This document shows, one piece after another, positions 2,046-62,386 of a DNA stretch of 64,000 nucleotides. The position numbers and the translations under genes were made by a program. Location of the stretch: positions 288,001 to 352,000 of the forward strand of contig CAVSTP010000004.1 of NCBI GenBank assembly GCA_963730935.1, written 5' to 3'. Position 1 is the first letter of the stretch; each line of letters starts with the position of its first letter. This DNA comes from an uncultured Nitrospiraceae bacterium. Its GTDB lineage: Bacteria; Nitrospirota; Nitrospiria; Nitrospirales; Nitrospiraceae. The notes below the pieces were generated by a model. It was given only the letters and a program-made list of their open reading frames with translations. It made no database searches and was not told the DNA's origin.

Positions 2046-2849
2046 GTGCGTACGAGACTATGTGTTTGGACGCTGACCATGACAGTCGTCCTGGGCCTGG
2101 ACGCATCGCTCACCTTGGCTGATCAAGCACTGCAGGCCCGGCCCGTGCCGGTGCAAATGCCCTATGAGATGCCGCCGCAGTTCCAGGATGCCCCGCCGGC
2201 GGTCACGGTTCCGCCGAATACCAAACCCCTCACGCAGGACGAGCTTCAACGCGCCGAAGCCTTGCTTCCCTTACTCGAAGGCAAGCAAGAATTCTGGGCC
2301 ATGGGCGAATTCGTGCATCTGGGGGAATCCAGCGTGCCTGTGCTGGTCAAGGCCTTGAGCATGCCAGGGCCTCGAACCCGCTACAACGCCATTGAGACGC
2401 TCTCGATGCTGAATGCCGCCTCGGGGGTGCCGGCGTTGATCAATACGGCGAAGGACCCCAATGAGCTGCCCCGCGTGCGTGAGCATGCGTTGCGGGTCGC
2501 GATTCGTCTGGATCCTTCAAAAACGCCTGAGGCCATTCAAGCCATGGCGAAGGACCAAAATTCGTCCATCCGCAAGGCGGCTGCCTTTGGCTCCCGTTAC
2601 GTGCGTGACAAGGCCGTCGTCCCGATTCTCATCGGAATGATCGCAGATGACGAGCGCTTCGTGGCCATGTCGGCCGTGCAATCACTCTGGATCCTGACGC
2701 TGCACGAGACAGAATTCCATGATTGGGACGCGTCGACGAAAGCCGACCGGCAGGAGTGGATGGCGGAATGGATGGAGTGGTGGAACGGAGAGAAAGAGAC
2801 GTTTCAGATTCCGGAGCCTCGTCGGAGGTCGTCCAAAATCCAAGGCTGA
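2046..2849 (+). CDS. Exported HEAT/PBS-lyase-repeat protein
   Basis: Signal-peptide-like N-terminus; repeated helical units (VPVLVKAL..RYNAIETL, IRKAAAF, VVPILIGMI); GAGGA RBS. Confidence 0.7.
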   Translation: MRTRLCVWTLTMTVVLGLDASLTLADQALQARPVPVQMPYEMPPQFQDAPPAVTVPPNTKPLTQDELQRAEALLPLLEGKQEFWAMGEFVHLGESSVPVLVKALSMPGPRTRYNAIETLSMLNAASGVPALINTAKDPNELPRVREHALRVAIRLDPSKTPEAIQAMAKDQNSSIRKAAAFGSRYVRDKAVVPILIGMIADDERFVAMSAVQSLWILTLHETEFHDWDASTKADRQEWMAEWMEWWNGEKETFQIPEPRRRSSKIQG

Positions 2850-2931
2850 TGGGCGCCTTGCGGCTCAAAAAAACCGTATGTTATACGTGTCATGGCCGGC
2901 GTTGACCGGTCAATTCCACTAGGACGATCTG

Positions 2932-3462
2932 ATGGCTGTGCTGCCGATTGCAAAACTCGGAAATCCGGTGCTCCGGAAGATTGCCGCTCGGGTGGATCCG
3001 CGCGAGATCCGGACCAAGGAGTTCCAGCAACTCATCGACGACATGTTCGAGACTATGCTCGAAGAGCCCGGGATCGGCCTGGCGGCGCCGCAGGTGTCGC
3101 AGTCGGTTCAGCTCGTGGTCATGGGCTGCGAAGGGGAAGGCGGATTTCCCACGACGACGCTGATCAACCCGACGATCGTCTATTACGGCCCGCAGCAGGT
3201 TGAGAACTGGGAAGGCTGTTTGAGCGTGGATGGTTTCCGGGGAAAAGTCACCAGGCCGGCAGTGGTGCGTGTCCAAGCACTCGACCGTGACGGCAAATCC
3301 ATTGATGTCGAGGCCGATGGCCTCTATGCGGTATGCATCCAACACGAAATGGATCATCTGATCGGCAAGGTGTTCCTCGATCGCATGACGGACCTGTCCA
3401 CCCTCACCCAGCTGAGCGAGTTCGAGAAATTCTGGCGGAAAGAGCCCACCCCGGTCATTTGA
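2932..3462 (+). CDS. def: Peptide deformylase
   Basis: GIGLAAPQV, EGCLS and QHEMDHL motifs. Confidence 0.97.
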   Translation: MAVLPIAKLGNPVLRKIAARVDPREIRTKEFQQLIDDMFETMLEEPGIGLAAPQVSQSVQLVVMGCEGEGGFPTTTLINPTIVYYGPQQVENWEGCLSVDGFRGKVTRPAVVRVQALDRDGKSIDVEADGLYAVCIQHEMDHLIGKVFLDRMTDLSTLTQLSEFEKFWRKEPTPVI

Positions 3463-32843: not shown

Positions 32844-33464
32844 ATGCACAGGGAACTCGTTCTCGCCACCCGTAATAGGCACAAAGGAGCAGAGCTTGCT
32901 GTGCTCCTCGCAGACCTGCCCATTCGGATCCGCACGATGGATGAATTTCCGGAGGTGCCCGACGTCGTCGAGGACGGCGACACCTGCGAGGCCAACGCGA
33001 TCAAAAAAGCCCGTGCGGTCTCACAAGCGACCGGCCTGTTAGCCGTAGCCGACGACACTGGATTGGAAGTGGATGCCTTGGGGGGACGACCCGGTGTCTT
33101 TGCGGCACGCTATGCCGGCCTGCAGGCGACGTATGAAGACAATTGGCGAAAATTGCTGGGCGAGATGACCGGGGTGCCGCGCGACCGCCGGACAGCCCGG
33201 TTTGTGACGGTGGCCGCGGTGGCACTGCCTTCCCAGGCGGTAGAGGTGACGACCGGTCGGCTTGACGGACTGATCGCAGAGGAGCCGGCCGGGGCCCGAG
33301 GGTTTGGCTACGATCCCGTGTTTTACGTGCCCGAATTGGGTAAGACCTTGGCCGAACTTTCGAGCGAAGAGAAGAATCGCATCAGCCATCGAGCGAAAGC
33401 CTTTGCACAAGTGCGCGACTTGTTGCAAAATAGATTCGGATCGGGGCGTAGCGCAGCCAGGTAG
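32844..33464 (+). CDS. rdgB: Non-canonical purine NTP pyrophosphatase (Ham1)
   Basis: ATRNRHK, ADDTGL.VDAL.G.PGV, GFGYDPVF, KNRISHR. Confidence 0.96.
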   Translation: MHRELVLATRNRHKGAELAVLLADLPIRIRTMDEFPEVPDVVEDGDTCEANAIKKARAVSQATGLLAVADDTGLEVDALGGRPGVFAARYAGLQATYEDNWRKLLGEMTGVPRDRRTARFVTVAAVALPSQAVEVTTGRLDGLIAEEPAGARGFGYDPVFYVPELGKTLAELSSEEKNRISHRAKAFAQVRDLLQNRFGSGRSAAR

Positions 33465-33480
33465 CGCGCCTGCTTTGGGA
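33442..33480 (+). repeat. Displaced 5' half of tRNA-Pro (att site of island A)
   Basis: 39 nt matching 36393-36431 with one mismatch (A33459 vs C36410); identity ends exactly after the anticodon loop TTTGGGA. Confidence 0.93.
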
Positions 33481-33489
33481 TCAAAGAAC

Positions 33490-33537
33490 GGGGATTGCTG
33501 AGAGGCCTTGATGGCTGCGACAATCCCCTCTTTTATT
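33490..33537 (+). terminator. Candidate intrinsic terminator just inside island A
   Basis: GGGGATTG (33490-97) / CAATCCCC (33521-28) stem followed by TCTTTTATT. Confidence 0.45.
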
Positions 33538-33611
33538 GACGGTTCTCCTTCTCAGTCGTTTGCCTCTCTTAGCATCTGTTGGCCGCCCATCACCCACGTT
33601 TGTCTGATTCC

Positions 33612-33629
33612 CTAACACCGTAATAACAC
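33612..33629 (+). repeat. 18-bp direct repeat CTAACACCGTAATAACAC, copy 1 (putative integrase arm site)
   Basis: Identical to 36323-36340. Confidence 0.8.
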
Positions 33630-33851
33630 CTGGCTGAAAACCCCCGGCCGTTAACCCTTGGCGGGTGTCCGTGTGTGAAGGTCGGAGGGATACTGATTGA
33701 CAAGATGGACATTTATGTCTGAGCAACATGTTACCGTGCCGCCGACGAATAACGCGCTGGGCGCGGTGACATGAATACGAATGATGGGCGTGTCCTGTCC
33801 TGTTGACAGTCACTTAAGGTGCGACATATCGTTGAGGAATAAAGGGAATTT

Positions 33852-35420
33852 ATGGAACTTAGGCCTAGCGCGAATTTCTCCCTGCCCAAACTCGCGTGGA
33901 TTGCCGAGGTAAATCGTACCGATCAAATTGTAACTCTTCACCACGGTCCCCTAGTTGAGGTGCGACAGAACTTCTTCATTGAGGGGGTATGGGATGGCCC
34001 GTTCGCGAAGGGCGATTTCGGTGAGACTGAGTGTGTATTCGGCACTGGGGCAATCCTCAAAGATGGATCAGTGCGATTCGTCACAAGCGCCGCAACGACT
34101 GACTTTCTGTATTACGAAGATAGGGGAGCCCAAGTAACAGTATCCAATTCTTTGCCGCTCTTGCTGGCATGCGTCCAAGACGCTCTTGACCCTCACTATC
34201 GGGATTATCCGTTAATTTGCGACTCCGTGATGGACGGTATTGATGACTATCGTCGCGATATTCCTACGAAGCGGGGAAAAGTACGGCGACAGATGTTCCG
34301 GAATCTTGATGTTTCTAGAGAGAAGGTTTCGGAGGCAGAAAAGAGAATGCCACCCCCATTCAAGTGTTTTGATGACTACCGGAACTATCTGCGAGGCAGA
34401 TATGGACTCATTGCGGCCAATGCGCGAGATGGTGCACGCTTGCAACCCCTTGAGATATGCTCCACCCAGTCTCGAGGTTACGACACCACCGCCGTGAATT
34501 CGATTGCCTGTGCGTATGGGATAGACAAGGTTTTTACCGTCTCCAAGGCAAAAAGTAATTTCTATCTGGCCCATAATGATGAGGGCAAGTTGCCTAGTGA
34601 TGACGGTGAAGATATATGCACGTCTCTAGGTCTCAAGTTTATTCGGCTCAATAGACGCGCATTTACAGAAGAATTCGGGCAGGAGCACCTTTTTTACTGT
34701 GTTCTCCACCATAACCAGGATGCAAACCTTAAAGACATCGCTAAACATGTCCCGAGGGTCAGCCTCCTTCTGACGGGAACATACGGGTCGATCTGGGACA
34801 CGGAAAAGTGCTTCAGCAATAGAGTAGTTCTGGATGGCAGCTTGAGAAGATCTGACCTAAGCACCCATGGAATGTCAGAATTCCGTCTGGTCGCTGGCTT
34901 TATTCAGCTGCCATTTCCCTACATAGGTGCGCGGCGAATGTCAGATATTCTTAGGATTACAGAGTCTTCCGAAATGGATCCCTGGCGCTTGGGCAATCTG
35001 TACGATCGGCCTATTGCGAGACGGATTGCTGAAGAAGCCGGGGTTCCAAGGCAAATCTTTGGCCAGTCCAAAATGGGATCTGTGGTTATTTTTTCTGCGC
35101 CCTCAATACCGTATGGTAAGGCGCTTCGGCGAGAATTCTTTGACTATTTGGCATACGAACGGATTATGACGCGATCTACAACATTGCTGTGGCCCATCGT
35201 TCGATGGGTGAATTCTATCCTGATGTTGAAAAGAGAGGACCGGTTTGCGGTTGTCCACTATACTGAGCGGCTGATTTCCAAGCTGACCAGGCGCGAATTT
35301 CATTTCAAGCGCATATGGTCGAAGCTTGATGGCGCGCTGTTCTGTTTCTGTGTCAATAGAACGGCGGAAACATATATTAGACATCTCTTCCAAGTGAAGC
35401 GACCAGCCTCGTCCTTATAA
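33852..35420 (+). CDS. Island cargo protein with PP-loop-like motif (asparagine synthetase-like?)
   Basis: 522 aa; TQSRGYDTTAV resembles SxGxDS; TTGACA-18-TATCGT promoter at 33803-33832. Confidence 0.7.
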   Translation: MELRPSANFSLPKLAWIAEVNRTDQIVTLHHGPLVEVRQNFFIEGVWDGPFAKGDFGETECVFGTGAILKDGSVRFVTSAATTDFLYYEDRGAQVTVSNSLPLLLACVQDALDPHYRDYPLICDSVMDGIDDYRRDIPTKRGKVRRQMFRNLDVSREKVSEAEKRMPPPFKCFDDYRNYLRGRYGLIAANARDGARLQPLEICSTQSRGYDTTAVNSIACAYGIDKVFTVSKAKSNFYLAHNDEGKLPSDDGEDICTSLGLKFIRLNRRAFTEEFGQEHLFYCVLHHNQDANLKDIAKHVPRVSLLLTGTYGSIWDTEKCFSNRVVLDGSLRRSDLSTHGMSEFRLVAGFIQLPFPYIGARRMSDILRITESSEMDPWRLGNLYDRPIARRIAEEAGVPRQIFGQSKMGSVVIFSAPSIPYGKALRREFFDYLAYERIMTRSTTLLWPIVRWVNSILMLKREDRFAVVHYTERLISKLTRREFHFKRIWSKLDGALFCFCVNRTAETYIRHLFQVKRPASSL

Positions 35421-35433
35421 GGTCTCTCTTTGT

Positions 35434-35870
35434 ATGGGTCTCTCCCCTTTGATTCGCTTCGGCACTTCCGCGTGGACCTATGAAGGGTGGCAAGGGCAGG
35501 TCTATAACAGAGCCTACAAGAAGACGACCTTTGCGCGAGAATGCTTAGGCGAGTACTGCCAGTATCTCTACAACGGAGAACCGCTCTTTCGCACCGTCGG
35601 GAACGATTCGACCTTCTACCGGCCACCGACCGCCAATCAGCTCAAAAACTACCTCAACCAGATCCCTGAAGACTTTGAGATGTGTTTCAAGGTGTGGGAA
35701 GAACTCACCATCCCCACGTTCTCGAGTCACCCACGCTACGGTGTGAAAGCCGGCCAAGCGAACCCTCGGTTTCTTGATGCCAGCCTCTTCAAGGATCTCG
35801 TCCTTACGCGCTACCGAGAGGCGAATTTCAGACCGCATACGGGACCGTTCCTCTTCGAATTTCAGCGCAC
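35434..35870 (+). pseudogene. DUF72 protein, 3'-truncated
   Basis: FGTSAWTYEGWQG, DSTFYRPP, FEMCFKV, GPFLFEFQR then similarity is lost. Confidence 0.8.
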
Positions 35871-36005
35871 CCAGACTCCAACCCATGCCTTTCAATCCGT
35901 GACGGCGATAGGGGTGTCTTAGTGCACTGCTGGGCTGGATGCACATTGAAAGACATTACCCAAAAACTCGGCATCAACGTCAAAGATCTCTTTCATGACA
36001 ACTTG
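35862..36005 (+). pseudogene. Primase-type zinc-finger fragment
   Basis: Frame reads SAHPDSNPCLSIRDGDRGVLVHCWAGCTLKDITQKLGINVKDLF, resembling the CxAHxD..PSLSI..HCxAGC Zn finger with the first Cys lost. Confidence 0.7.
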
Positions 36006-36025
36006 CTCAGTTCTCGCCAGCGCCA

Positions 36026-36392
36026 AGATTCACGGTTCTGCATGGGGAACGTCGCCTGGACACCCCCAAGGTCTTCCTGTATAAACGGGAAGCCTTGGAA
36101 GAATCCCCGAACCGCTTTTGCTGCGGCCTGTCGTCGGGCTGGAATCACCGGCTTACGCCTCCATGATCTATGGCATACCGCCATCACGAACCTGAGGAGG
36201 GCAGGGGCAGATACCATGACCGCCATGAAGATTGTCGGCCACAAGTCTGAACAGATGCATCGGCGCTATAATACGATCCAGCCCGAAGACAGAGGCTGCG
36301 GCGAAGCTGCAAAAGTACGTGGCTAACACCGTAATAACACTTGCATCTCAGCCTATCGCGAGGCAGAGTGTAAGTGGTTATAATTCCAACGT

Positions 36393-36402
<10 letters not shown>
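36026..36402 (+). pseudogene. Tyrosine integrase C-terminal remnant
   Basis: AFAAACRRAGI..LRLHDLWHT (HxxR to HxxW), IVGHKS..MHRRY; apparent frameshifts near 36083 and 36290. Confidence 0.88.
36323..36340 (+). repeat. 18-bp direct repeat CTAACACCGTAATAACAC, copy 2
   Basis: Identical to 33612-33629. Confidence 0.8.
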
Positions 36403-36470
<68 letters not shown>

Positions 36471-37234
36471 TATCCATAATGAAAATCGGATCTAGCTTCC
36501 GTCTCAGGACAATCTGGGGTCACGGTTGGGGTTACAAAATTACCTCGGTTTGCCCACCATTACGCTGCCTGCGCAATGACGGCTAATGTCAATCGATAAG
36601 CCCTCCGCACCAGCCAAACATCAGGCCTCGCCGAAAACAGAAGCAAACTGGAGGACGCACAATCCAGACACTTACTCTAGTTCGCCTCGAATCGGTAGCA
36701 CCATGGCGAATTCTGAAATCATCGGATATGGAAGGATAAAAAGAGCCACCGTTTCGTGACCTCATTTTATTAATCACCGTCCTGAATAGCGCCTGCACCT
36801 ACCATGGAGATTCTACCCCCTCATCGAAAATCCGATACCGACGCAACATCATGAAGGCCCACCGCTCACGCCGCCGACAATGGCGAAGGAGAGCCTGTAT
36901 TGCCGTGGTCAGGTCGTACCGGCCATGGCGATCTGGTGCAATCACGCCCGCCTGCCGCAGCCGAGCGAGGCTAGAGGTCGGAAGTTTTCCAGTACCTTCG
37001 TTATCAATGACTTATGCCGCGCAGTCGCCAGACCGTTCAATCCGGCACTGAGCACTTTTGACCATTAACTGCGACCTCTATTCAGCGAGAATGCTCTTAC
37101 ACACCAAATGCCGAGGTGGATTCTGCCTATTGGCCAGCGGATTGCTTCTTCGACGAGCCGATCATTTGAAAGAGGGCGGACTAGTCTCCGGGCCATGTTT
37201 TTCTTCAACCTTATTCTCACGCTCCTTCTTACAT

Positions 37235-37652
37235 TCCTACTGCTGAATGGCTGATTATCGAGCAGCCGCCGAACAGCCACCTGACGCTGGACACCAAGCC
37301 CGGACGGCACAGTGCGCAACCCCTAGAGAGAGCTGGCCGACCGTTTGAGTCGGCCAGCCCCACCGTGCCAGAGCGGTAGGAGGCCATGTGAAAGGGCCGA
37401 ATTGAAATGGACAGGCCTTCGGGGTCCACCTGCAGGAATGGAAGCGAAGTGAGTTCCTGAAAATAGAGCGGGCTGTGCGTCGGGCTAGGCGACGGTTTCC
37501 TTTTTCAGTCGGGTACGTTGCCGAACATGTCGCTAGAGGTACGGTGTCAAGTACCTGGCAAGTGGCTGACATGTCCTCGTTACTCCTGCTCTGTTCCCCC
37601 GTACATCCGATCAATAAAGACAGCCAACGCAGCAGAGCGGGGCCCGGCGAGG
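37235..37652 (+). ncRNA. Candidate large structured RNA of unknown family
   Basis: About ten nested or adjacent helices found by eye (up to 10-11 bp), mostly G-U wobbles on the + strand, a cUUCGg loop, and no credible ORF. Confidence 0.45.
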
Positions 37653-37683
37653 AAGTGGCGACAGAGTGCAAAGGCGACCAACC

Positions 37684-38070
37684 ATGAAACAGCTGTTTTT
37701 CGTTGCACTCATGCTGCTCAGCAGTGGACCGGCGTATGCGGAGTGGGTCGTCATCGACACTTTCGAAGATGAAACGATATACATGGACCTAGATACGATC
37801 CATCGCAAAGAGGACCTCGCAGAAATTTCAGTGATCTCCGATTTCAACGCTGCGAAACACCTCCAGGACGGGTCGCGTTACCGTTCTGCACGACTACTAC
37901 ATCAATATAATTGCATCGAACAACGCTTTCGATTGTTGGCGGTCACCTTGTTCGCTGGCAATATGGGGAACGGCGCGATGTTAGATGCTTTGGCTAAAGA
38001 AGGCACATGGCATCCTATCCATTCCGATAATGTTAGCCGACAGTTGATGGAATTGGCCTGCCCCAAGTGA
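37684..38070 (+). CDS. Surface-adhesin E-like exported protein
   Basis: Signal peptide AYA-EWV, IYMDLDTI, QYNC..RFR, GNMGNG, WHPI, terminal AC. Confidence 0.75.
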   Translation: MKQLFFVALMLLSSGPAYAEWVVIDTFEDETIYMDLDTIHRKEDLAEISVISDFNAAKHLQDGSRYRSARLLHQYNCIEQRFRLLAVTLFAGNMGNGAMLDALAKEGTWHPIHSDNVSRQLMELACPK

Positions 38071-38092
38071 GCGCCCCCTAGGGAATGAATCA

Positions 38093-38397
38093 ATGAAACG
38101 GGACCAAACGCTGGTCATCGGTTACCGTTCGGTTGACCGTGCCCGCGAAGGGCGAATGCTCGGCATACGTCAGCCGCTCGATGGACCGATCTTTGACAGC
38201 TGGAGGATGCGCAGAACTGGTGCATCCACGCCATGATCAGCCATTACGACCGTCGGCTCGGCATGTCCGATGCGCAGATCGAGCCGTTCAAGGGCATGGT
38301 GGACTGCGGTGGAGAGCCCTCAAATCCAACCCAACTTCGGGACATCGAGCGGATCTGTGAGCAAGCGGCGAGGGAGCGAGCGATACGGCCACGCTGA
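38093..38397 (+). pseudogene. Frameshifted hypothetical gene (~101 aa)
   Basis: MKRDQTLVIGYRS...GPIFDSW continues in the -1 frame as EDAQNWCIHAMISHYD...RPR*; 305 nt, one short of a whole frame. Confidence 0.5.
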
Positions 38398-38581
38398 TAT
38401 GTGGAGCGGTTGATGGTTTGTTTCAGGGTTCCTCGTCGTGGCCTCCTTCAGATTTCGTCGTCGAAGACTACCTGATCTACCTGATCACTTTTGAACAGTT
38501 ATGGCCGTTCTATACGCCTATGCTCTGTACGGTGAGGCGCGTTTTTCTGTGCCGTTGAAAGGCATCTGAAAGGCATCTGCC

Positions 38582-38797
38582 ATGAAACCCGAGCACACCC
38601 TTATCGATTGCATCCTCGACATCATAGTTCACCAACCGGGCTGTCGGATCCAGGACGTGGCCGACTTCCTGCCGGATCTGACATTGAATGAGATCCTTGA
38701 CTCATTGCGTTACCTCAGCCGGAAGGGGCAGTTGGAGTTGATAGTAGACCGCCAGGGTAGATTCGCTGTTACCCCAACGTCGCGAGTGTTCAATTAG
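38582..38797 (+). CDS. Small winged-helix-like protein
   Basis: ILDIIVHQPGCRIQDVADFLPDLTLNEILDSLRYLSRKGQL. Confidence 0.6.
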   Translation: MKPEHTLIDCILDIIVHQPGCRIQDVADFLPDLTLNEILDSLRYLSRKGQLELIVDRQGRFAVTPTSRVFN

Positions 38798-38893
38798 ACC
38801 TCAACCTCATGTTCAAAAAACTGCATTCGCAACCTTCGCAACTTCCTAATCTTCAAAACTCCTCCATCTCATAGTCACCAGAAAGGACGGTCC

Positions 38894-39127
38894 ATGATTC
38901 GTCATACTCGTATGTCCGTGTTTGTTGAGGAAAATATGTTAACCCATCCTACCCAGGGGGGAATTAGCCGTATCGCGAAGGATTTCATGAACCAAGGAAA
39001 AGAATTATTGAGACGCCTTCGCACAACTGAGGCGAACACGCTGACAAAGGGGGAAATACGCATGCTGCGACTGCAGCTCCATCTCTTAGACATCGAAGCC
39101 TCTAACAGAGCACTGGAACCTGAGTGA
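38894..39127 (+). CDS. Hypothetical small helical protein (start uncertain)
   Basis: AAGGA RBS; amphipathic helices. Confidence 0.5.
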   Translation: MIRHTRMSVFVEENMLTHPTQGGISRIAKDFMNQGKELLRRLRTTEANTLTKGEIRMLRLQLHLLDIEASNRALEPE

Positions 39128-39274
39128 ATCAGAACGGAAGCGTTTTCAGTCGAATGCCCGCTTGACTCAGTCTTCTAGAGCGCCTAAGGTACCTTCACTC
39201 CGCTCCACCTGCTCCTGCTGCGGCTTCCTGGGAAGACCCGACCGCCAGATACATAATGAAAGGCGGTCGTCCTC

Positions 39275-39481
39275 TTGTCTGACCCATCATTTCTACCCAT
39301 CCGCGAAGACCTTCACAATTTTTGCCGGTACTGCGAGCGACTGTTAGCCAGCGCCCATGCGCCTGACCATGCCCCATTCTCGCAAGATGAACTGCAGATG
39401 ATCTGTCGCTACGCCAACGAAGTCGCCAAGCTTGCCGATTCGCAGAGGTTTGACGAGCAGAGCAACGGGAAACCGGCGTGA
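39275..39481 (+). CDS. Hypothetical small protein
   Basis: EDLHNFCRYCERLL...FSQDELQMICRYANEV; protein-like. Confidence 0.55.
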   Translation: MSDPSFLPIREDLHNFCRYCERLLASAHAPDHAPFSQDELQMICRYANEVAKLADSQRFDEQSNGKPA

Positions 39482-40015
39482 CAGCGGTCACAGTTCATTG
39501 CGCCATCCTCAAGCGGTAGTCCTCGGCAATCAGCACGTCAGGCGGCCAGTGCTCCCGATGGATCAGCCACAAAACTGCGAGCGCGCCGACCCACAGCCTT
39601 TGTTCACTGTAGGACAGTCTGGGAATTGACAGGTTCTGCTTCGCGAATATACTCGTGCAAATTCCTGTATGTCTTGTTTCGGGAGGCCAGCCATGCACAA
39701 ATCAGGTTCGCGAGTTGCTACCGCCAATCAAATTGTTCCTGTTTGCTGCGTATGCGGCCTCCTCAGCGACGAGGCGGGTCCGTTGACCGTGAGCGCTGGG
39801 TGACAAAGCAAACCCTTTCGAAAAACTCATGGTGTAGAGCCAGGCGCTTACCGGTTCAGTCACACCTACTGCCCTGTGTGTTATAGGTTGTTCCTGAATC
39901 GCATTGCCGCCGCGTAGCGAAACTGAGGGCTGAGCCCAATTCTGTCCCTCCATGGCTCTACCGTAGGCTGCACTCCGGCGTTTGTCCCTAGCTGACCTTA
40001 CAAGCGACCAGAAAT

Positions 40016-40381
40016 TCAAGCAGCAATATCCGCCCTACCCCCCTCTTCAAAGCCGAGAGGAAAAGGAGGATGACTATCGCGAGCAACGGAGGGAATTGGA
40101 ATCGGTCCCGCCCATAGTGCATCGATGTTTTGAGGATCGACGACTGCCCCTGGTACCTTGGGATAGCGAGAAGCTGGAACAAGCGCTACGAAGCGATCGG
40201 TTTCCCAGTCACGTTCGACTTGTACGATCGTCGGCAAACCTGGGCCCACATGAGAGTTTAGCATCCAATACCACCCCGCTCGTCGAGGCTTCACCTCCGT
40301 CCAAGTTAACGGCTGGTCTTTGTAATGTGTCGGCATGAAATCCGACCTCGTGTGCATAAAGCTACCAATTAAGTTATTCAC
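40016..40381 (-). CDS. Hypothetical phage-like small protein
   Basis: WT..KP..AGWYW...WAGPIP.P pattern; GGAGG RBS. Confidence 0.6.
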   Translation of the reverse strand: MNNLIGSFMHTRSDFMPTHYKDQPLTWTEVKPRRAGWYWMLNSHVGPGLPTIVQVERDWETDRFVALVPASRYPKVPGAVVDPQNIDALWAGPIPIPSVARDSHPPFPLGFEEGGRADIAA

Positions 40382-40895
40382 GACTCACCCTCCTTGTAAA
40401 CTGATCAAAAACGATGACGTCGCCTATCGCGCTATTAGGTAATTGACAACCGGGGGTATTTTTACGAAATTACAAGGGACCAGCAGGAGGATCGGACTGG
40501 GAGGGACTTGATACGTAACGGTGGTGATTTTTGTCTGGCATAATGGTGAGGTACACTACGTAAAAACAAGACCCATGATAGGAATCAATGCAAAAGACAT
40601 CAATAGTTCATTGGAGTAGGGATGAATGGCACCATTGCTTCGAAGACTTTAGATGAGGGGTTTCAACACTTCAGGGGGATGCGGACCGGATGAAAATGCG
40701 CTGAGGTGCTGAAGCGAAGGAGGGGGAGAATGTCATAAACCGATAGGGTTACCCGAACAATGAAATACCACCATTTCGCTACAGGACTTGCTTGTTGATG
40801 GGAAAATGCTTTAACGGTGTTTGCTCGTACCTCCATTTTTAAGTACACTTTCCAACACTGACGACTGCTAGAACTCTCACCGTAAGGAAGAGGTT

Positions 40896-41315
40896 ATGCC
40901 AAAAACAATGGTGAGGATTAGAACGAGTGGCAACTTGAATCCGACGGCATCGCGGTCAAGTCAGACGATTACAACGGTGCCAGCGAAAAAAGTACTTGTC
41001 ATCGAAACAATCAGCGCAAATATCCGTATACCGGTGGCTACACCAGCACCGGAAATTGCAAGACTAGTAGTGGTCACCGGATCAGCATTTCCTCCTGGAA
41101 CTGGTTCGCCGCTAATAGACATTCCAATGACCCGGATGGCCACTGATCCGGCAGGGAACTTTGTAAATCATGTCGCGTTGGCACACATGAGAGCCTATGC
41201 CACCGGTGGAATAGTACAGTATTCGATAGATCTCAGCATTCCCAGCAGTGGGTCTTTTGATCTGAGTCTGTTTGGGTATCTATTACCAGCCAATAGCCAA
41301 AGTCTCGCTCCGTGA
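40896..41315 (+). CDS. Hypothetical beta-rich protein
   Basis: GAGGT RBS; TVPAKKVLVIETIS...LSLFGYL. Confidence 0.65.
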   Translation: MPKTMVRIRTSGNLNPTASRSSQTITTVPAKKVLVIETISANIRIPVATPAPEIARLVVVTGSAFPPGTGSPLIDIPMTRMATDPAGNFVNHVALAHMRAYATGGIVQYSIDLSIPSSGSFDLSLFGYLLPANSQSLAP

Positions 41316-41845
41316 TAGGGAAACCGCCATCAGCGTTACACGATCGGGGATATTTGGCTCGCTCTCCAGGAACCACACTGCTGATTTTCACCTTGCTTGC
41401 TGCATGCCCTGTAAACACCAGGGGGCAAGAGCGAGTGACGACCATTGACCATGGTAGTATGACCGAGTCCGCTAAATCACCAACCTCACAAGCGGAACCT
41501 CTGGACCTTCATGAACAGATGCTTGCTGGCAAACGGTTCAAAAAGGCTAAGTTGAAGGGTGCAAACCTTCGCGGAGCGATGCTGGCGGGTGCTGACTTTC
41601 GAGGGGCAAATCTCGAGTATGCCGATCTAGGGGGTGCGATGATGCTTGGAGCCAATCTGAGTGGCGCCAATTTGATGAATGCGAACTTTAAGGAGGCCAA
41701 TTTATTAGGCGCTCACCTGGAAGGGGCACGCATTGAGGGCACAAATTTCCATAAAACAGTATTCCTCACTCAAGACCAACTCGACGACGCATGCGGTAAA
41801 CCTAGAGCTCTTCCGGAAGGACTCAAAGCGCCGAAGGCTTGCTAG
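41312..41845 (+). CDS. Pentapeptide repeat protein
   Basis: Tandem A(N/D)LxG units; LTQDQLDDACG...LPEGL tail. Confidence 0.88.
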   Translation: MIGKPPSALHDRGYLARSPGTTLLIFTLLAACPVNTRGQERVTTIDHGSMTESAKSPTSQAEPLDLHEQMLAGKRFKKAKLKGANLRGAMLAGADFRGANLEYADLGGAMMLGANLSGANLMNANFKEANLLGAHLEGARIEGTNFHKTVFLTQDQLDDACGKPRALPEGLKAPKAC

Positions 41846-42184
41846 CTGTTAAGAAGAGAAGTCCTCAACTATCGTACTCTCCCAGGGGCCTGTTGGGGTA
41901 TAAGCTTTCAAATGTGAAGCGTCGTGGGTCTCTCTCTTGTTAGGGCATGGGCCACCCGTGAAGGCTACCGTCTCAATGAAACCGTAGGCGTGGGAGTCCT
42001 CAAACAGACCCCGTCCTGCCGACAAAGGCCGGGGTCTTCCTGCCATCAAATCCCGGCTTCGGCACCAACCCTCCACCCCGGTTCTACAAAGGGTTCTCGC
42101 GCGTATTCAGTCCCAGAGAATGACAAATGCAGATAGAACTCCTTCTTCCTGATGTAATCACTGCCCCGAAGTGAGCCGGCGGAT

Positions 42185-43582
42185 TTGCTTGACACCTCAA
42201 ACTTAATAGCTGAGGCACGAAGAGGATGTTTTTTCTTATTAGCCATGTTTATATACCAGGGCTGCTGCTCGCTGCTAGCCCTGAAGAGGCGGTTTGTCTT
42301 GAAACGAGTCGCATATCATTTAATCCTTGGCGTATTCCTTTTTGCTTTGACATTAGCCCTGCTTGAGACCGTAGCAGCTGTTTTTACACCATCCTGGCCC
42401 TACCGTGATTTACGTTCTGTCGGGCCAGAGTTTCTTCAGGGAGAGCGGAGCATAATTTCGTACCACCCTCAGTGGTGGGCCCCCGTAAATTCGTGGGGCA
42501 TGAGAGACTTTGAACGGGCAGTACAAGTACCGAACGGTAGAAAAAGACTGCTCTTTATCGGTGACAGCTTCCTTGAAGGAGGATTTACTGATTACCCACT
42601 GTCATTGCTAGTGGAAAAAGATCTATTCATGGGTGGAATGACATTGTTGGAAACGATAAACCTTGGTGTTTCGGCAACCGATCCGAAAAGTTATTTCTTC
42701 AGACTAAAGCACATAGGATTGAAGCTCGCTCCTGATCTTGCGTTTATCTTTTTCTATTCTGGGAACGACTTTCTTCGTAGTGAAGAAAGTTTCGAGGGAA
42801 GTCGCCTTTTCTCCGTGATTGATGAGTTGCCAAAGCCGTCGCTCCTTGGGTCGATCGCTCCGCGGCTTACGTGGCTTTTGGTTAACCGGTTTCGACTCTC
42901 GGAACTACTCCGAGCAAATCCGTCTATGCCGGCCGAGTTCGATGCGCTTTTCACAGCCACGCAGCTACCATACGAAGAAGGACTGCAAAGGATTACGGAA
43001 CATGCTCGTCGCTTTTATTTCCCGAATCTCGACGAGAAAGCCATATCGTCGATCCTTGGCCGAGGAGGCGTCTCATTCTGGAGATCGCTCAAGTTCAGAG
43101 AGACTGATCCCGAGTTTTTTCAGGGATGGATTCTAAAGAATCTGTTGCTCTGGGAAACCCAGAGCGGGGAATATGCGACGAGTACCGCACACGCTGATAC
43201 AATGCTGGCTCCGGATGAGATCGAGGCGACCCTAACCTGGCTCCGTGCCGCGAATGATCTTGCTGCAAGAAATAGAATAAAAGTAGTCTTATTCTTAGTG
43301 CCGGTTGGGACGACCGATCCGTCATTTGTAGCGTATTGGAAACCATGGCCTCGCTATTTCAGCTGGAATTACATCTCTGATGCGCGTCACTTGCGGTTGA
43401 GTCATCGTCTAAAAGAGGAAGGATTACGGTTTGTGGATTTGAGAGACGTGCTCGATGGGATACCCGACACTTACAGGAAGACCGACGGCCATTGGACAGT
43501 AAAGGGACAGAGTGTTGTAGCGGCTAGGGTTCTTCAGGAAATCGGGAAACTCTATCCGGAAATCCGAGCAAGTCATCAGTAG
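42185..43582 (+). CDS. Membrane-anchored SGNH/GDSL hydrolase (AlgX/AlgJ-like); start uncertain
   Basis: FIGDSF, INLGVS, SGND and DGHW blocks; N-terminal TM. Confidence 0.8.
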   Translation: MLDTSNLIAEARRGCFFLLAMFIYQGCCSLLALKRRFVLKRVAYHLILGVFLFALTLALLETVAAVFTPSWPYRDLRSVGPEFLQGERSIISYHPQWWAPVNSWGMRDFERAVQVPNGRKRLLFIGDSFLEGGFTDYPLSLLVEKDLFMGGMTLLETINLGVSATDPKSYFFRLKHIGLKLAPDLAFIFFYSGNDFLRSEESFEGSRLFSVIDELPKPSLLGSIAPRLTWLLVNRFRLSELLRANPSMPAEFDALFTATQLPYEEGLQRITEHARRFYFPNLDEKAISSILGRGGVSFWRSLKFRETDPEFFQGWILKNLLLWETQSGEYATSTAHADTMLAPDEIEATLTWLRAANDLAARNRIKVVLFLVPVGTTDPSFVAYWKPWPRYFSWNYISDARHLRLSHRLKEEGLRFVDLRDVLDGIPDTYRKTDGHWTVKGQSVVAARVLQEIGKLYPEIRASHQ

Positions 43583-43716
43583 GAGTGGGTCCCATCTAGG
43601 TCTAGGTTTCCTGTACTGTACTCTGCCGTGTCTTGCTGTTGCCATAACTACATGGGAGTGTTGATCTCCCGTGTGCGGCTTTGTCCCGCCGGATCCTCTC
43701 GTATATTCGCCTAATG

Positions 43717-43764
43717 TGCTTTGGGAACAGGATCTCGGAGGTTCAAATCCTCTCGCTCCGACCA
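43717..43764 (+). repeat. Displaced 3' half of tRNA-Pro (att site of island B)
   Basis: 48 nt vs 36422-36469 with three mismatches; starts at TGCTTTGGGA and ends in ACCA. Confidence 0.92.
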
Positions 43765-43855
43765 AACAAAGCTAGCTCGTACTGGCGCCTCATCGGCGTT
43801 AGCCCTCTTCATATATTGGTGCCGAATAAAGACCCCTCCAGTAGTTTCTTGCTAT

Positions 43856-61537: not shown

Positions 61538-62386
61538 ATGAAGCTCGGGGCATTCGACATTTATCCCGTCAGCGACGGCCGGTTTGCGCTGGACGGTGGG
61601 GCCATGTTCGGAGTTGTTCCGAAGGTTATCTGGGGGCGATGCTGCCCGGCGGATGAGTTGAACCGCATTCCGCTGAGTCTCACCGCTCTTCTCATCAGGG
61701 CCCATGGCAAACACATCCTGGTCGATACAGGGCTGGGGGCCAAAGAAAACGAAAAATTTCACACCATGTTTGCCGTGGAACGCGTGCCGACGCTGCAGGA
61801 GTCACTGAAGCGTCTCGGCCTGTACCCGGAAGACATTGACTTCGTGATCAATACGCACCTCCATTTCGATCACGCGGGAGGTAATACGACGACGGCGGAC
61901 GACGGGACCGTGCGTCCGGCCTTTCCAAAAGCGCGCTATGTGGTTCAGCACGGCGAATTTGAAGACGCTGCCCGCACCAACGAACGCACGCGGGCCAGTT
62001 ACCGGCGGGACAACTTTACTCCGGTCGCACACCTCAATCAGTGGGAATTCCTTCACGGCGATACTGAACTGGTTCCGGGAGTGAAGGCCATCGTCACCGC
62101 CGGTCACACGCGCTGGCATCAAAGCGTCAGAATTGAATCGGAAGGAAAGATCGCGTTCTTTCTCGGCGATTTGATCCCGACCGTCTCCCATCTCCCGCTT
62201 CCGTACATCATGGGCTACGACCTTTTCCCCATTCAGACGTTGGAGACGAAACGCTGGGTGCTGGATCGCGCATTCGAGGAGCAGTGGCTGCTGCTCTTTG
62301 AGCATGATCCGGTCGTCCAGGCCGGATACGTGCGGAAGGATGAGGAAGGCAAATATCTTCTTCAGGAGGAGACAGCATGGCAGTAA
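61538..62386 (+). CDS. Metallo-beta-lactamase-fold hydrolase (YtnP-like)
   Basis: [35 protein letters not shown]. Confidence 0.9.

Follow-up and report, generated by a model that had tools for sequence, protein, structure and literature searches.

A short fold, seen in an RNA library, within the gene-less arm of a tRNA-Pro island of a soil Nitrospira species

A 418-nt stretch of Nitrospira DNA (positions 37235-37652 of a 64,000-nt window, by which we mean the whole stretch of DNA that was analysed) is no more structured, taken as a whole, than expected by chance; within it lies a core, 37298-37490, that folds stably on either strand and coincides with a contig from an RNA library. The explanation that we favour, tentatively and at a little under an even chance, is that the stretch belongs to a long + strand leader or spacer transcript, unconserved and created by rearrangement in a decaying island, whose one stable domain is seen as RNA. 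The core may be a short RNA confined to this species, probably as part of a long leader in front of an Adhesin_E gene. None of the readings weighed here amounts to a new kind of system, and the core is not a new class of RNA. The features concerned, by window coordinates, are as follows.

36393-36469, + strand: tRNA-Pro (anticodon TGG), the integration target (Rfam tRNA, 67.4 bits; ARAGORN)
36422-36470, no strand assigned: left 49-nt direct repeat, the tRNA 3' end and left border of island B (repeat search; 94% identical to 43717-43765)
36471-37683, no strand assigned: gene-less, single-copy left arm of island B, 1.2 kb, which holds the candidate; found solely in this species among those searched
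37049-37093, + strand: promoter-like motif of 45 nt, with TTGACC at 37058-37063, a 15-nt spacer and TATTCA at 37079-37084 (similarity to genome G044)
37235-37652, + strand: the stretch singled out by the first-pass annotation (helix check, shuffles, pair probabilities)
37298-37490, no strand assigned: core domain, an interrupted 17-bp closing helix around four hairpins, coinciding with the RNA-library contig
37332-37358, no strand assigned: perfect hairpin of 10 bp with a 7-nt loop (pair probability 0.98)
37478-37505, + strand: terminator-like site, a 5-bp stem then GTTTCCTTTTT (consensus scan)
37684-38070, + strand: Adhesin_E family gene, 128 aa, with a signal peptide (Pfam PF16747, E 4.9e-24)
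38093-38397, + strand: frameshifted copy of gene X, protein of ~100 aa, split into ORFs 38093-38236 and 38233-38397
43717-43765, no strand assigned: right 49-nt direct repeat, a partial tRNA-Pro 3' end and right border of island B (repeat search)

The first-pass annotation, made by eye, had taken 37235-37652 for a highly structured RNA of about 420 nt, possibly a ribozyme, and this is not supported by shuffling. The + strand has a minimum free energy (MFE) of -161.6 kcal/mol, against a dinucleotide-shuffle mean of -155.7 +/- 6.1, and 17 of 100 shuffles are at least as stable; the z-score is thus near zero (-0.97), the very outcome that the annotation itself had named as speaking against its reading. 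The helices as such are real, and to that extent the observation is partly confirmed: all 11 pairs of arms lie where they had been placed, ten of them fully complementary with the G-U pairs counted for them and one (37306-37314/37361-37369) with an internal mismatch, and the cUUCGg loop is present at 37417-37422. The large structure assembled from these helices is not upheld and is not the favoured fold, as the complete set evaluates at -107.2 kcal/mol, 54 above the MFE. Four of the 11 (37235-37244/37372-37381, 37306-37314/37361-37369, 37408-37412/37424-37428 and 37478-37482/37490-37494) have a mean pair probability of at most 0.02 in the ensemble, since they are displaced by a long-range helix that the eye had missed; three others (37332-37341/37349-37358, 37433-37438/37454-37459 and 37585-37595/37631-37641) reach 0.96-0.99. 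Selection on the + strand had been read from the G-U pairs. The - strand, however, is at least as stable (MFE -165.5, z -1.84, with 6 of 100 shuffles at least as stable), and these pairs therefore carry no strand signal. As for smaller pieces, sub-domain 37235-37381, with borders chosen at helix ends, scores z -4.26 for + and -3.83 for -, with none of 200 shuffles as stable on either strand, 37400-37500 gives +0.52 and 37525-37652 gives -1.45, and segment 37486-37720 is not significantly structured (z -1.30). A search of Rfam 15, whose families include RNase P, tmRNA, 6S, riboswitches, group I/II introns, HEARO and others, gave no family for the candidate: at the gathering score the tRNA alone passes in the whole window, and at E <= 10 there are three chance-level matches over 37150-37720, whose 8.8-17 bits fall short of cut-offs of 36-100. 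In practice the lesson of the case is chiefly negative, namely that helices picked out by eye in DNA of 55% GC added up to a 420-nt "structure" that shuffling does not support.

The core is closed by 37298-37317 paired with 37468-37485, an interrupted helix of 17 bp whose pair probability is 0.73-1.00 in the 418-nt context, and its fold comprises 57 pairs, five of them G-U. On its own it gives z -3.59 for + and -4.48 for -, and none of the 200 shuffles made per strand was as stable. When the whole 64-kb window was scanned with RNALfold (L=200, SVM z-scores, clusters at z <= -4), the best local folds here were 37297-37487 on + (z -4.34) and 37291-37491 on - (z -5.28). The window contains 28 such clusters on + and 24 on -, and since 15 of the former and four of the latter equal or surpass the folds here, the thermodynamic signal of the core is ordinary for the window, where folds of comparable stability recur every few kb. 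The strongest folds of the window are 42996-43188 (+, z -6.24) and 36057-36106 (-, z -6.19), followed by 62260-62314 (+, z -5.85) and 34975-35049 (+, z -5.83), all four stronger than anything within 37235-37652. Perfect hairpins of at least 10 bp number 118 in the genome, about one per 34 kb; the one at 37332-37358 is GC-rich, intergenic and not just 3' of a stop codon, and no second copy of it was found in the genome.

Parts of 36900-38100 occur in 15 DNA metagenome runs and five RNA runs, and the alignment drew on contigs from two runs of each kind (for RNA, X16 and X18), four of 24 runs in all. In X16, an rRNA-depleted soil metatranscriptome, a 193-nt contig of depth 2.3 corresponds exactly to 37298-37490, with 0 differences. 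Its ends lie 1 and 3 nt from those of the + strand fold, which RNALfold had named before the RNA-library contigs were examined; by a rough estimate, the chance that a random contig would match both ends of any two-ended feature within a few bases in 2.2 kb is <0.01. A different study contributes run X18, with contigs 37645-37795 and 37792-37942, the former of which bridges untranslated DNA and the start codon of the Adhesin_E gene, with 39 nt on one side and 112 nt on the other. Cover in X16 is limited to the core, taking in neither the rest of the arm nor Adhesin_E, and X18 does not cover the core, uncovered parts counting as no evidence. The other RNA runs, X17, X19 and X20, contain small shares (0.10, 0.08 and 0.06). 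We infer that the X16 contig comes from RNA rather than from carried-over DNA, and from the + strand; contigs give neither strand, transcript ends nor level, and RNA libraries can carry DNA.

The DNA runs add information from other strains. One contig, from a strain ~1.6% different, spans 36984-37864, and the arm and the Adhesin_E gene are therefore linked in that strain too. The differences listed for the two DNA runs, whose strains are nearly identical to the sequence here, include four within the core. Two of them, 37434 A>C and 37476 T>C, each cost the fold an A-U pair, and the list has no compensating change for either; 37448 A>G is at a loop position, and the fourth, an extra A inserted after 37349, sits at the apex of the perfect hairpin.

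The first-pass annotation had called the candidate "island-borne", and rightly so, as 37235-37652 lies inside a 7.3-kb insertion in tRNA-Pro. Two relatives (L003 and L004) have an empty site, in which tRNA-Pro is directly followed by the sequence that stands right of 43765 here (43766-43780); because of this and of the 49-nt direct repeats, 36471-43765 can be recognised as an insertion (island B). No Phage_integrase match was obtained among 10 island ORFs, which within 38400-40900 were those of at least 55 aa, or among 19 six-frame pieces of 36353-37874. The region 38400-40900, ~2.5 kb of island B, has short ORFs only (105-121 aa at most, overlapping and on both strands), with no Pfam matches, and may consist of small genes that are either likewise decayed or unknown. 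Next to the tRNA there is another insertion, island A (33484-36391), which is flanked by 43-nt direct repeats corresponding to the 5' part of tRNA-Pro (33441-33483 and 36392-36434) and contains a 522-aa ORF without a Pfam match, a DUF72 fragment and a C-terminal integrase fragment (35922-36326, outside island B); in three relatives, rph-rdgB is directly followed by the tRNA.

Neither homologues nor a coding signal were detected for the candidate stretch. The 19 six-frame pieces of the arm region have no noteworthy Pfam or PHROGs match at E <= 1, the codon log-odds of the arm, negative or close to zero, do not exceed +0.13 in any of the six frames (compared with +0.2 to +0.4 in flanking genes), and a 138-aa ORF that spans the candidate on the - strand has no relative in 5.8 billion protein clusters ("near" lengths). 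Within its own genome the arm has no paralogue by tblastn or blastn, and no part of it of at least 34 nt has another copy beyond chance-level matches; the arm is thus single-copy and therefore no MITE or REP family. A blastn search of the 32 other species of the genus returned nothing except one 49-nt match, to G044, and among ~400 genomes of the order eight others gave matches, all short (26-44 nt, E 3e-4 to 8e-3), which we took as chance. There was no match to plasmids and phages with blastn in distant mode, and no arm homologue in the genome of relative L021. An exact 24-nt pattern from the core gave 0 hits in metagenome contigs and 0 in viral contigs, collections from which records very near the source genome are possibly absent, and a covariance model of the core (R1), built from one sequence entered twice, matched the source genome's own copy alone among the 33 genomes of the genus. 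Lacking relatives, the core cannot define a family. Four of the eight genomes of the order with short matches, all from a single other genus, share the 40-nt piece 37573-37612 at 80-83% identity (E 3e-4 to 8e-3); these four are kin and not independent, and the match may be due to chance.

The part of the arm that is shared with another species is 37049-37093, and it is the only such part (86% over 49-50 nt in G044, E 4.2e-8). Its pattern, with up to three mismatches, is present in 2 of 33 genomes of the genus, and its 5' half recurs in its own genome upstream of a secreted-protein operon that ends in an Adhesin_E paralogue, a copy that has a 9-nt insertion between the two hexamer-like parts. 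A consensus scan of 36300-38300 found no sigma-70-like site on the + strand; the motif goes uncalled because the scan needs a spacer of 16-18 nt. Judged by its sequence, 37049-37093 is a possible start of a + strand transcript, although the 15-nt spacer here and the 9-nt insertion in the paralogous copy make a promoter role doubtful.

Downstream, the candidate ends 31 nt before the ATG at 37684, close to the 30 nt or so given in the first-pass annotation, and the gene that was there described as adhesin-like has the Adhesin_E match listed above. Four Adhesin_E genes are present in the genome (37684-38070, C4:8924-8535, C3:886821-886435 and C3:405682-405335), whose products share 41-48% identity with each other (tblastn), and the nearest relative of the gene in the window, with 80% amino acid identity, is in L021. 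Neither the L021 gene nor any of the three paralogues has the candidate leader upstream; its place is taken by other DNA, which is gene X for L021 and C3:887081 and different genes for C4:8925. The stretch is thus no leader that accompanies the gene. In metagenome contigs, none of 96 pattern matches to the Adhesin_E protein was confirmed (0 of 96). Genome contigs gave two loci, the second of which, a weak 34-residue match in a Bacteroidaceae contig, was discarded.

Taken together, the contig at 37298-37490 and the shared promoter-like motif would place the stretch in a long + strand leader, which makes that option plausible. In such a case, a transcript would start near the motif, at ~37058-37090 (a start site that is our inference), and run into Adhesin_E at 37684. 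Within it, ~37298-37490 would fold as a stable closed domain, and it would be seen as RNA probably through resistance to nucleases or fragmentation. If the mRNA is affected at all, we would expect at most a change in how stable the downstream gene's message is or how well it is translated, and there may well be no effect. Thus, of the "long regulatory leader" originally suggested, the long leader is plausible, while the "regulatory" part finds no support, and the interpretation in the first-pass annotation is partly supported. In favour of our explanation we also count the island borders, the lack of a coding signal, the core fold with its closing helix, the X18 contig across the start codon and the changed order of gene X and Adhesin_E. 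Counting against it, the RNA contig was found in one of the two RNA libraries examined, at a depth of 2.3, the stability of the core is ordinary for the window, two strain variants break pairs, the promoter role of the motif is doubtful, nothing promoter-like directly precedes either end of the core, and the terminator-like hairpin cannot form when the core folds.

One may also consider that these are chance hairpins in decaying, non-functional island DNA with no meaningful transcription, the contig being carried-over DNA or noise, a scenario that we regard as rather unlikely. It would account for the z-score of the whole stretch and for the recurrence of similar z-scores every few kb in the window, for the lack of homologues in the genus, the order, L021, plasmids or phages, for the strain variants that break pairs without compensation, and for the low depth of the contig, and it suits an island whose decay is visible in the frameshifted gene X and in the absence of an integrase among the scanned ORFs. 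However, fragmentation of DNA does not explain why the contig ends so close to both ends of a fold predicted beforehand, and an RNA library does contain the downstream gene, together with 39 nt or more of what precedes it. If a protein gene had decayed here, such as an island integrase, or if the stretch were a DNA-level site (a transposon end, or a recombination or transfer site), some of its properties would fit: an integrase gene is usually found next to the tRNA, the arm has about the size of one, the 138-aa ORF on the - strand spans the candidate, and the similar fold stability of the two strands is what one expects of a DNA palindrome. Yet a decayed gene, which had been put forward at the outset as an alternative identity, receives no support from Pfam, PHROGs, tblastn in its own genome, codon bias or the protein clusters in which the - strand ORF has no relative; a single copy rules against a MITE/REP family, and the candidate lies at least 765 nt from the attachment repeat. 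We therefore consider this combined possibility very improbable.

The remaining alternatives turn on the terminator-like site. Its stem (37478-37494) and the closing helix share 37478-37482, which forms the 5' arm of the stem and lies within the helix's 3' arm, ending at 37485; the stem has a pair probability of 0.00 when the core folds, for which reason its function is doubtful. An orphan sRNA of ~190-210 nt, free-standing, carried by the island on either strand and base pairing with mRNAs like other horizontally acquired sRNAs, would agree with the closed fold and its paired ends, with the contig of equal extent in a metatranscriptome depleted of rRNA, and with the T-run just past the core on the + strand. 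It is nevertheless unlikely, as nothing convincingly promoter-like could be seen by eye directly upstream of 37298 (+) or 37490 (-), homologues are lacking, and the hairpin that might serve as the 3' end of a + strand sRNA, a doubtful candidate for that role, is outcompeted by the far stronger closing helix. Slightly less probable again is that the core is a discrete, abundant and self-contained structured RNA of no described family in a single soil Nitrospira species, with its own five-way fold and 17-bp closing helix, i.e. an orphan with a function beyond that of a leader, for example as a protein- or ligand-binding domain. The same overlap of arms could be the switch of a riboswitch or attenuator that senses a ligand or signal for Adhesin_E, the closing-helix 3' arm alternating with the hairpin at 37478-37505, and the core does lie on the strand of that gene, 194 nt upstream of its ATG. 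Against such a sensing leader, neither the Adhesin_E gene of L021 nor any of the three paralogues has it upstream, conservation and an Rfam match at E <= 10 are lacking, the terminator stem has 5 bp only, and 37486-37720 is not significantly structured; we give it very little credence.

Among known systems, the candidate resembles long structured 5' leaders and the orphan sRNAs of islands or prophages, such as the Isr RNAs of Salmonella, which are island-encoded: it lies in a tRNA-integrated island, is non-coding, folds stably, has no relatives beyond its species and may, to judge by the RNA contig, be transcribed. It differs in that this sign of transcription is a single contig of low depth and that its promoter and terminator are putative. 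Stable RNAs can also derive from a tRNA trailer, as does the 3' external transcribed spacer of leuZ in E. coli, and the candidate likewise follows a tRNA that shares its strand, with 37478-37505 as the first + strand terminator-like site past tRNA-Pro; unlike such RNAs, however, the core starts 829 nt past the tRNA end, far beyond known trailers. With riboswitch and attenuator leaders it shares a position upstream of a gene and a closing helix whose 3' arm overlaps a terminator-like stem, but it has no Rfam match, no conservation and no linkage to the gene in relatives or paralogues. Among the papers that a literature search listed, no title or abstract opening mentions a Nitrospira sRNA catalogue or this island. 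If real, the core RNA would be among the very few non-coding RNAs of Nitrospira with an experimental hint, and an example of an RNA that owes its origin to the rearrangement of island DNA and not to inheritance. No general open question depends on it.

The surroundings of the Adhesin_E genes are themselves variable. In L021 an intact gene X (103 aa, at 2693-3004) is directly upstream of Adhesin_E and overlaps its start (ATGA), whereas in the window gene X is downstream of it and frameshifted. By tblastn the X family, which has no Pfam match, occupies ~12 places in the genome, many of them truncated or frameshifted, including C4:541045, C2:632329 and C3:887111, the last directly upstream of an Adhesin_E gene. 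Another family, Y (68 aa, no Pfam match), has five copies with 70-73% identity, at 39275-39481, C4:735336, C4:8324, C3:31347 and C2:886540, and is found downstream of the Adhesin_E copy in L021 and at C4:8324. X, Y and a further module look like a shuffled set of small-gene cassettes.
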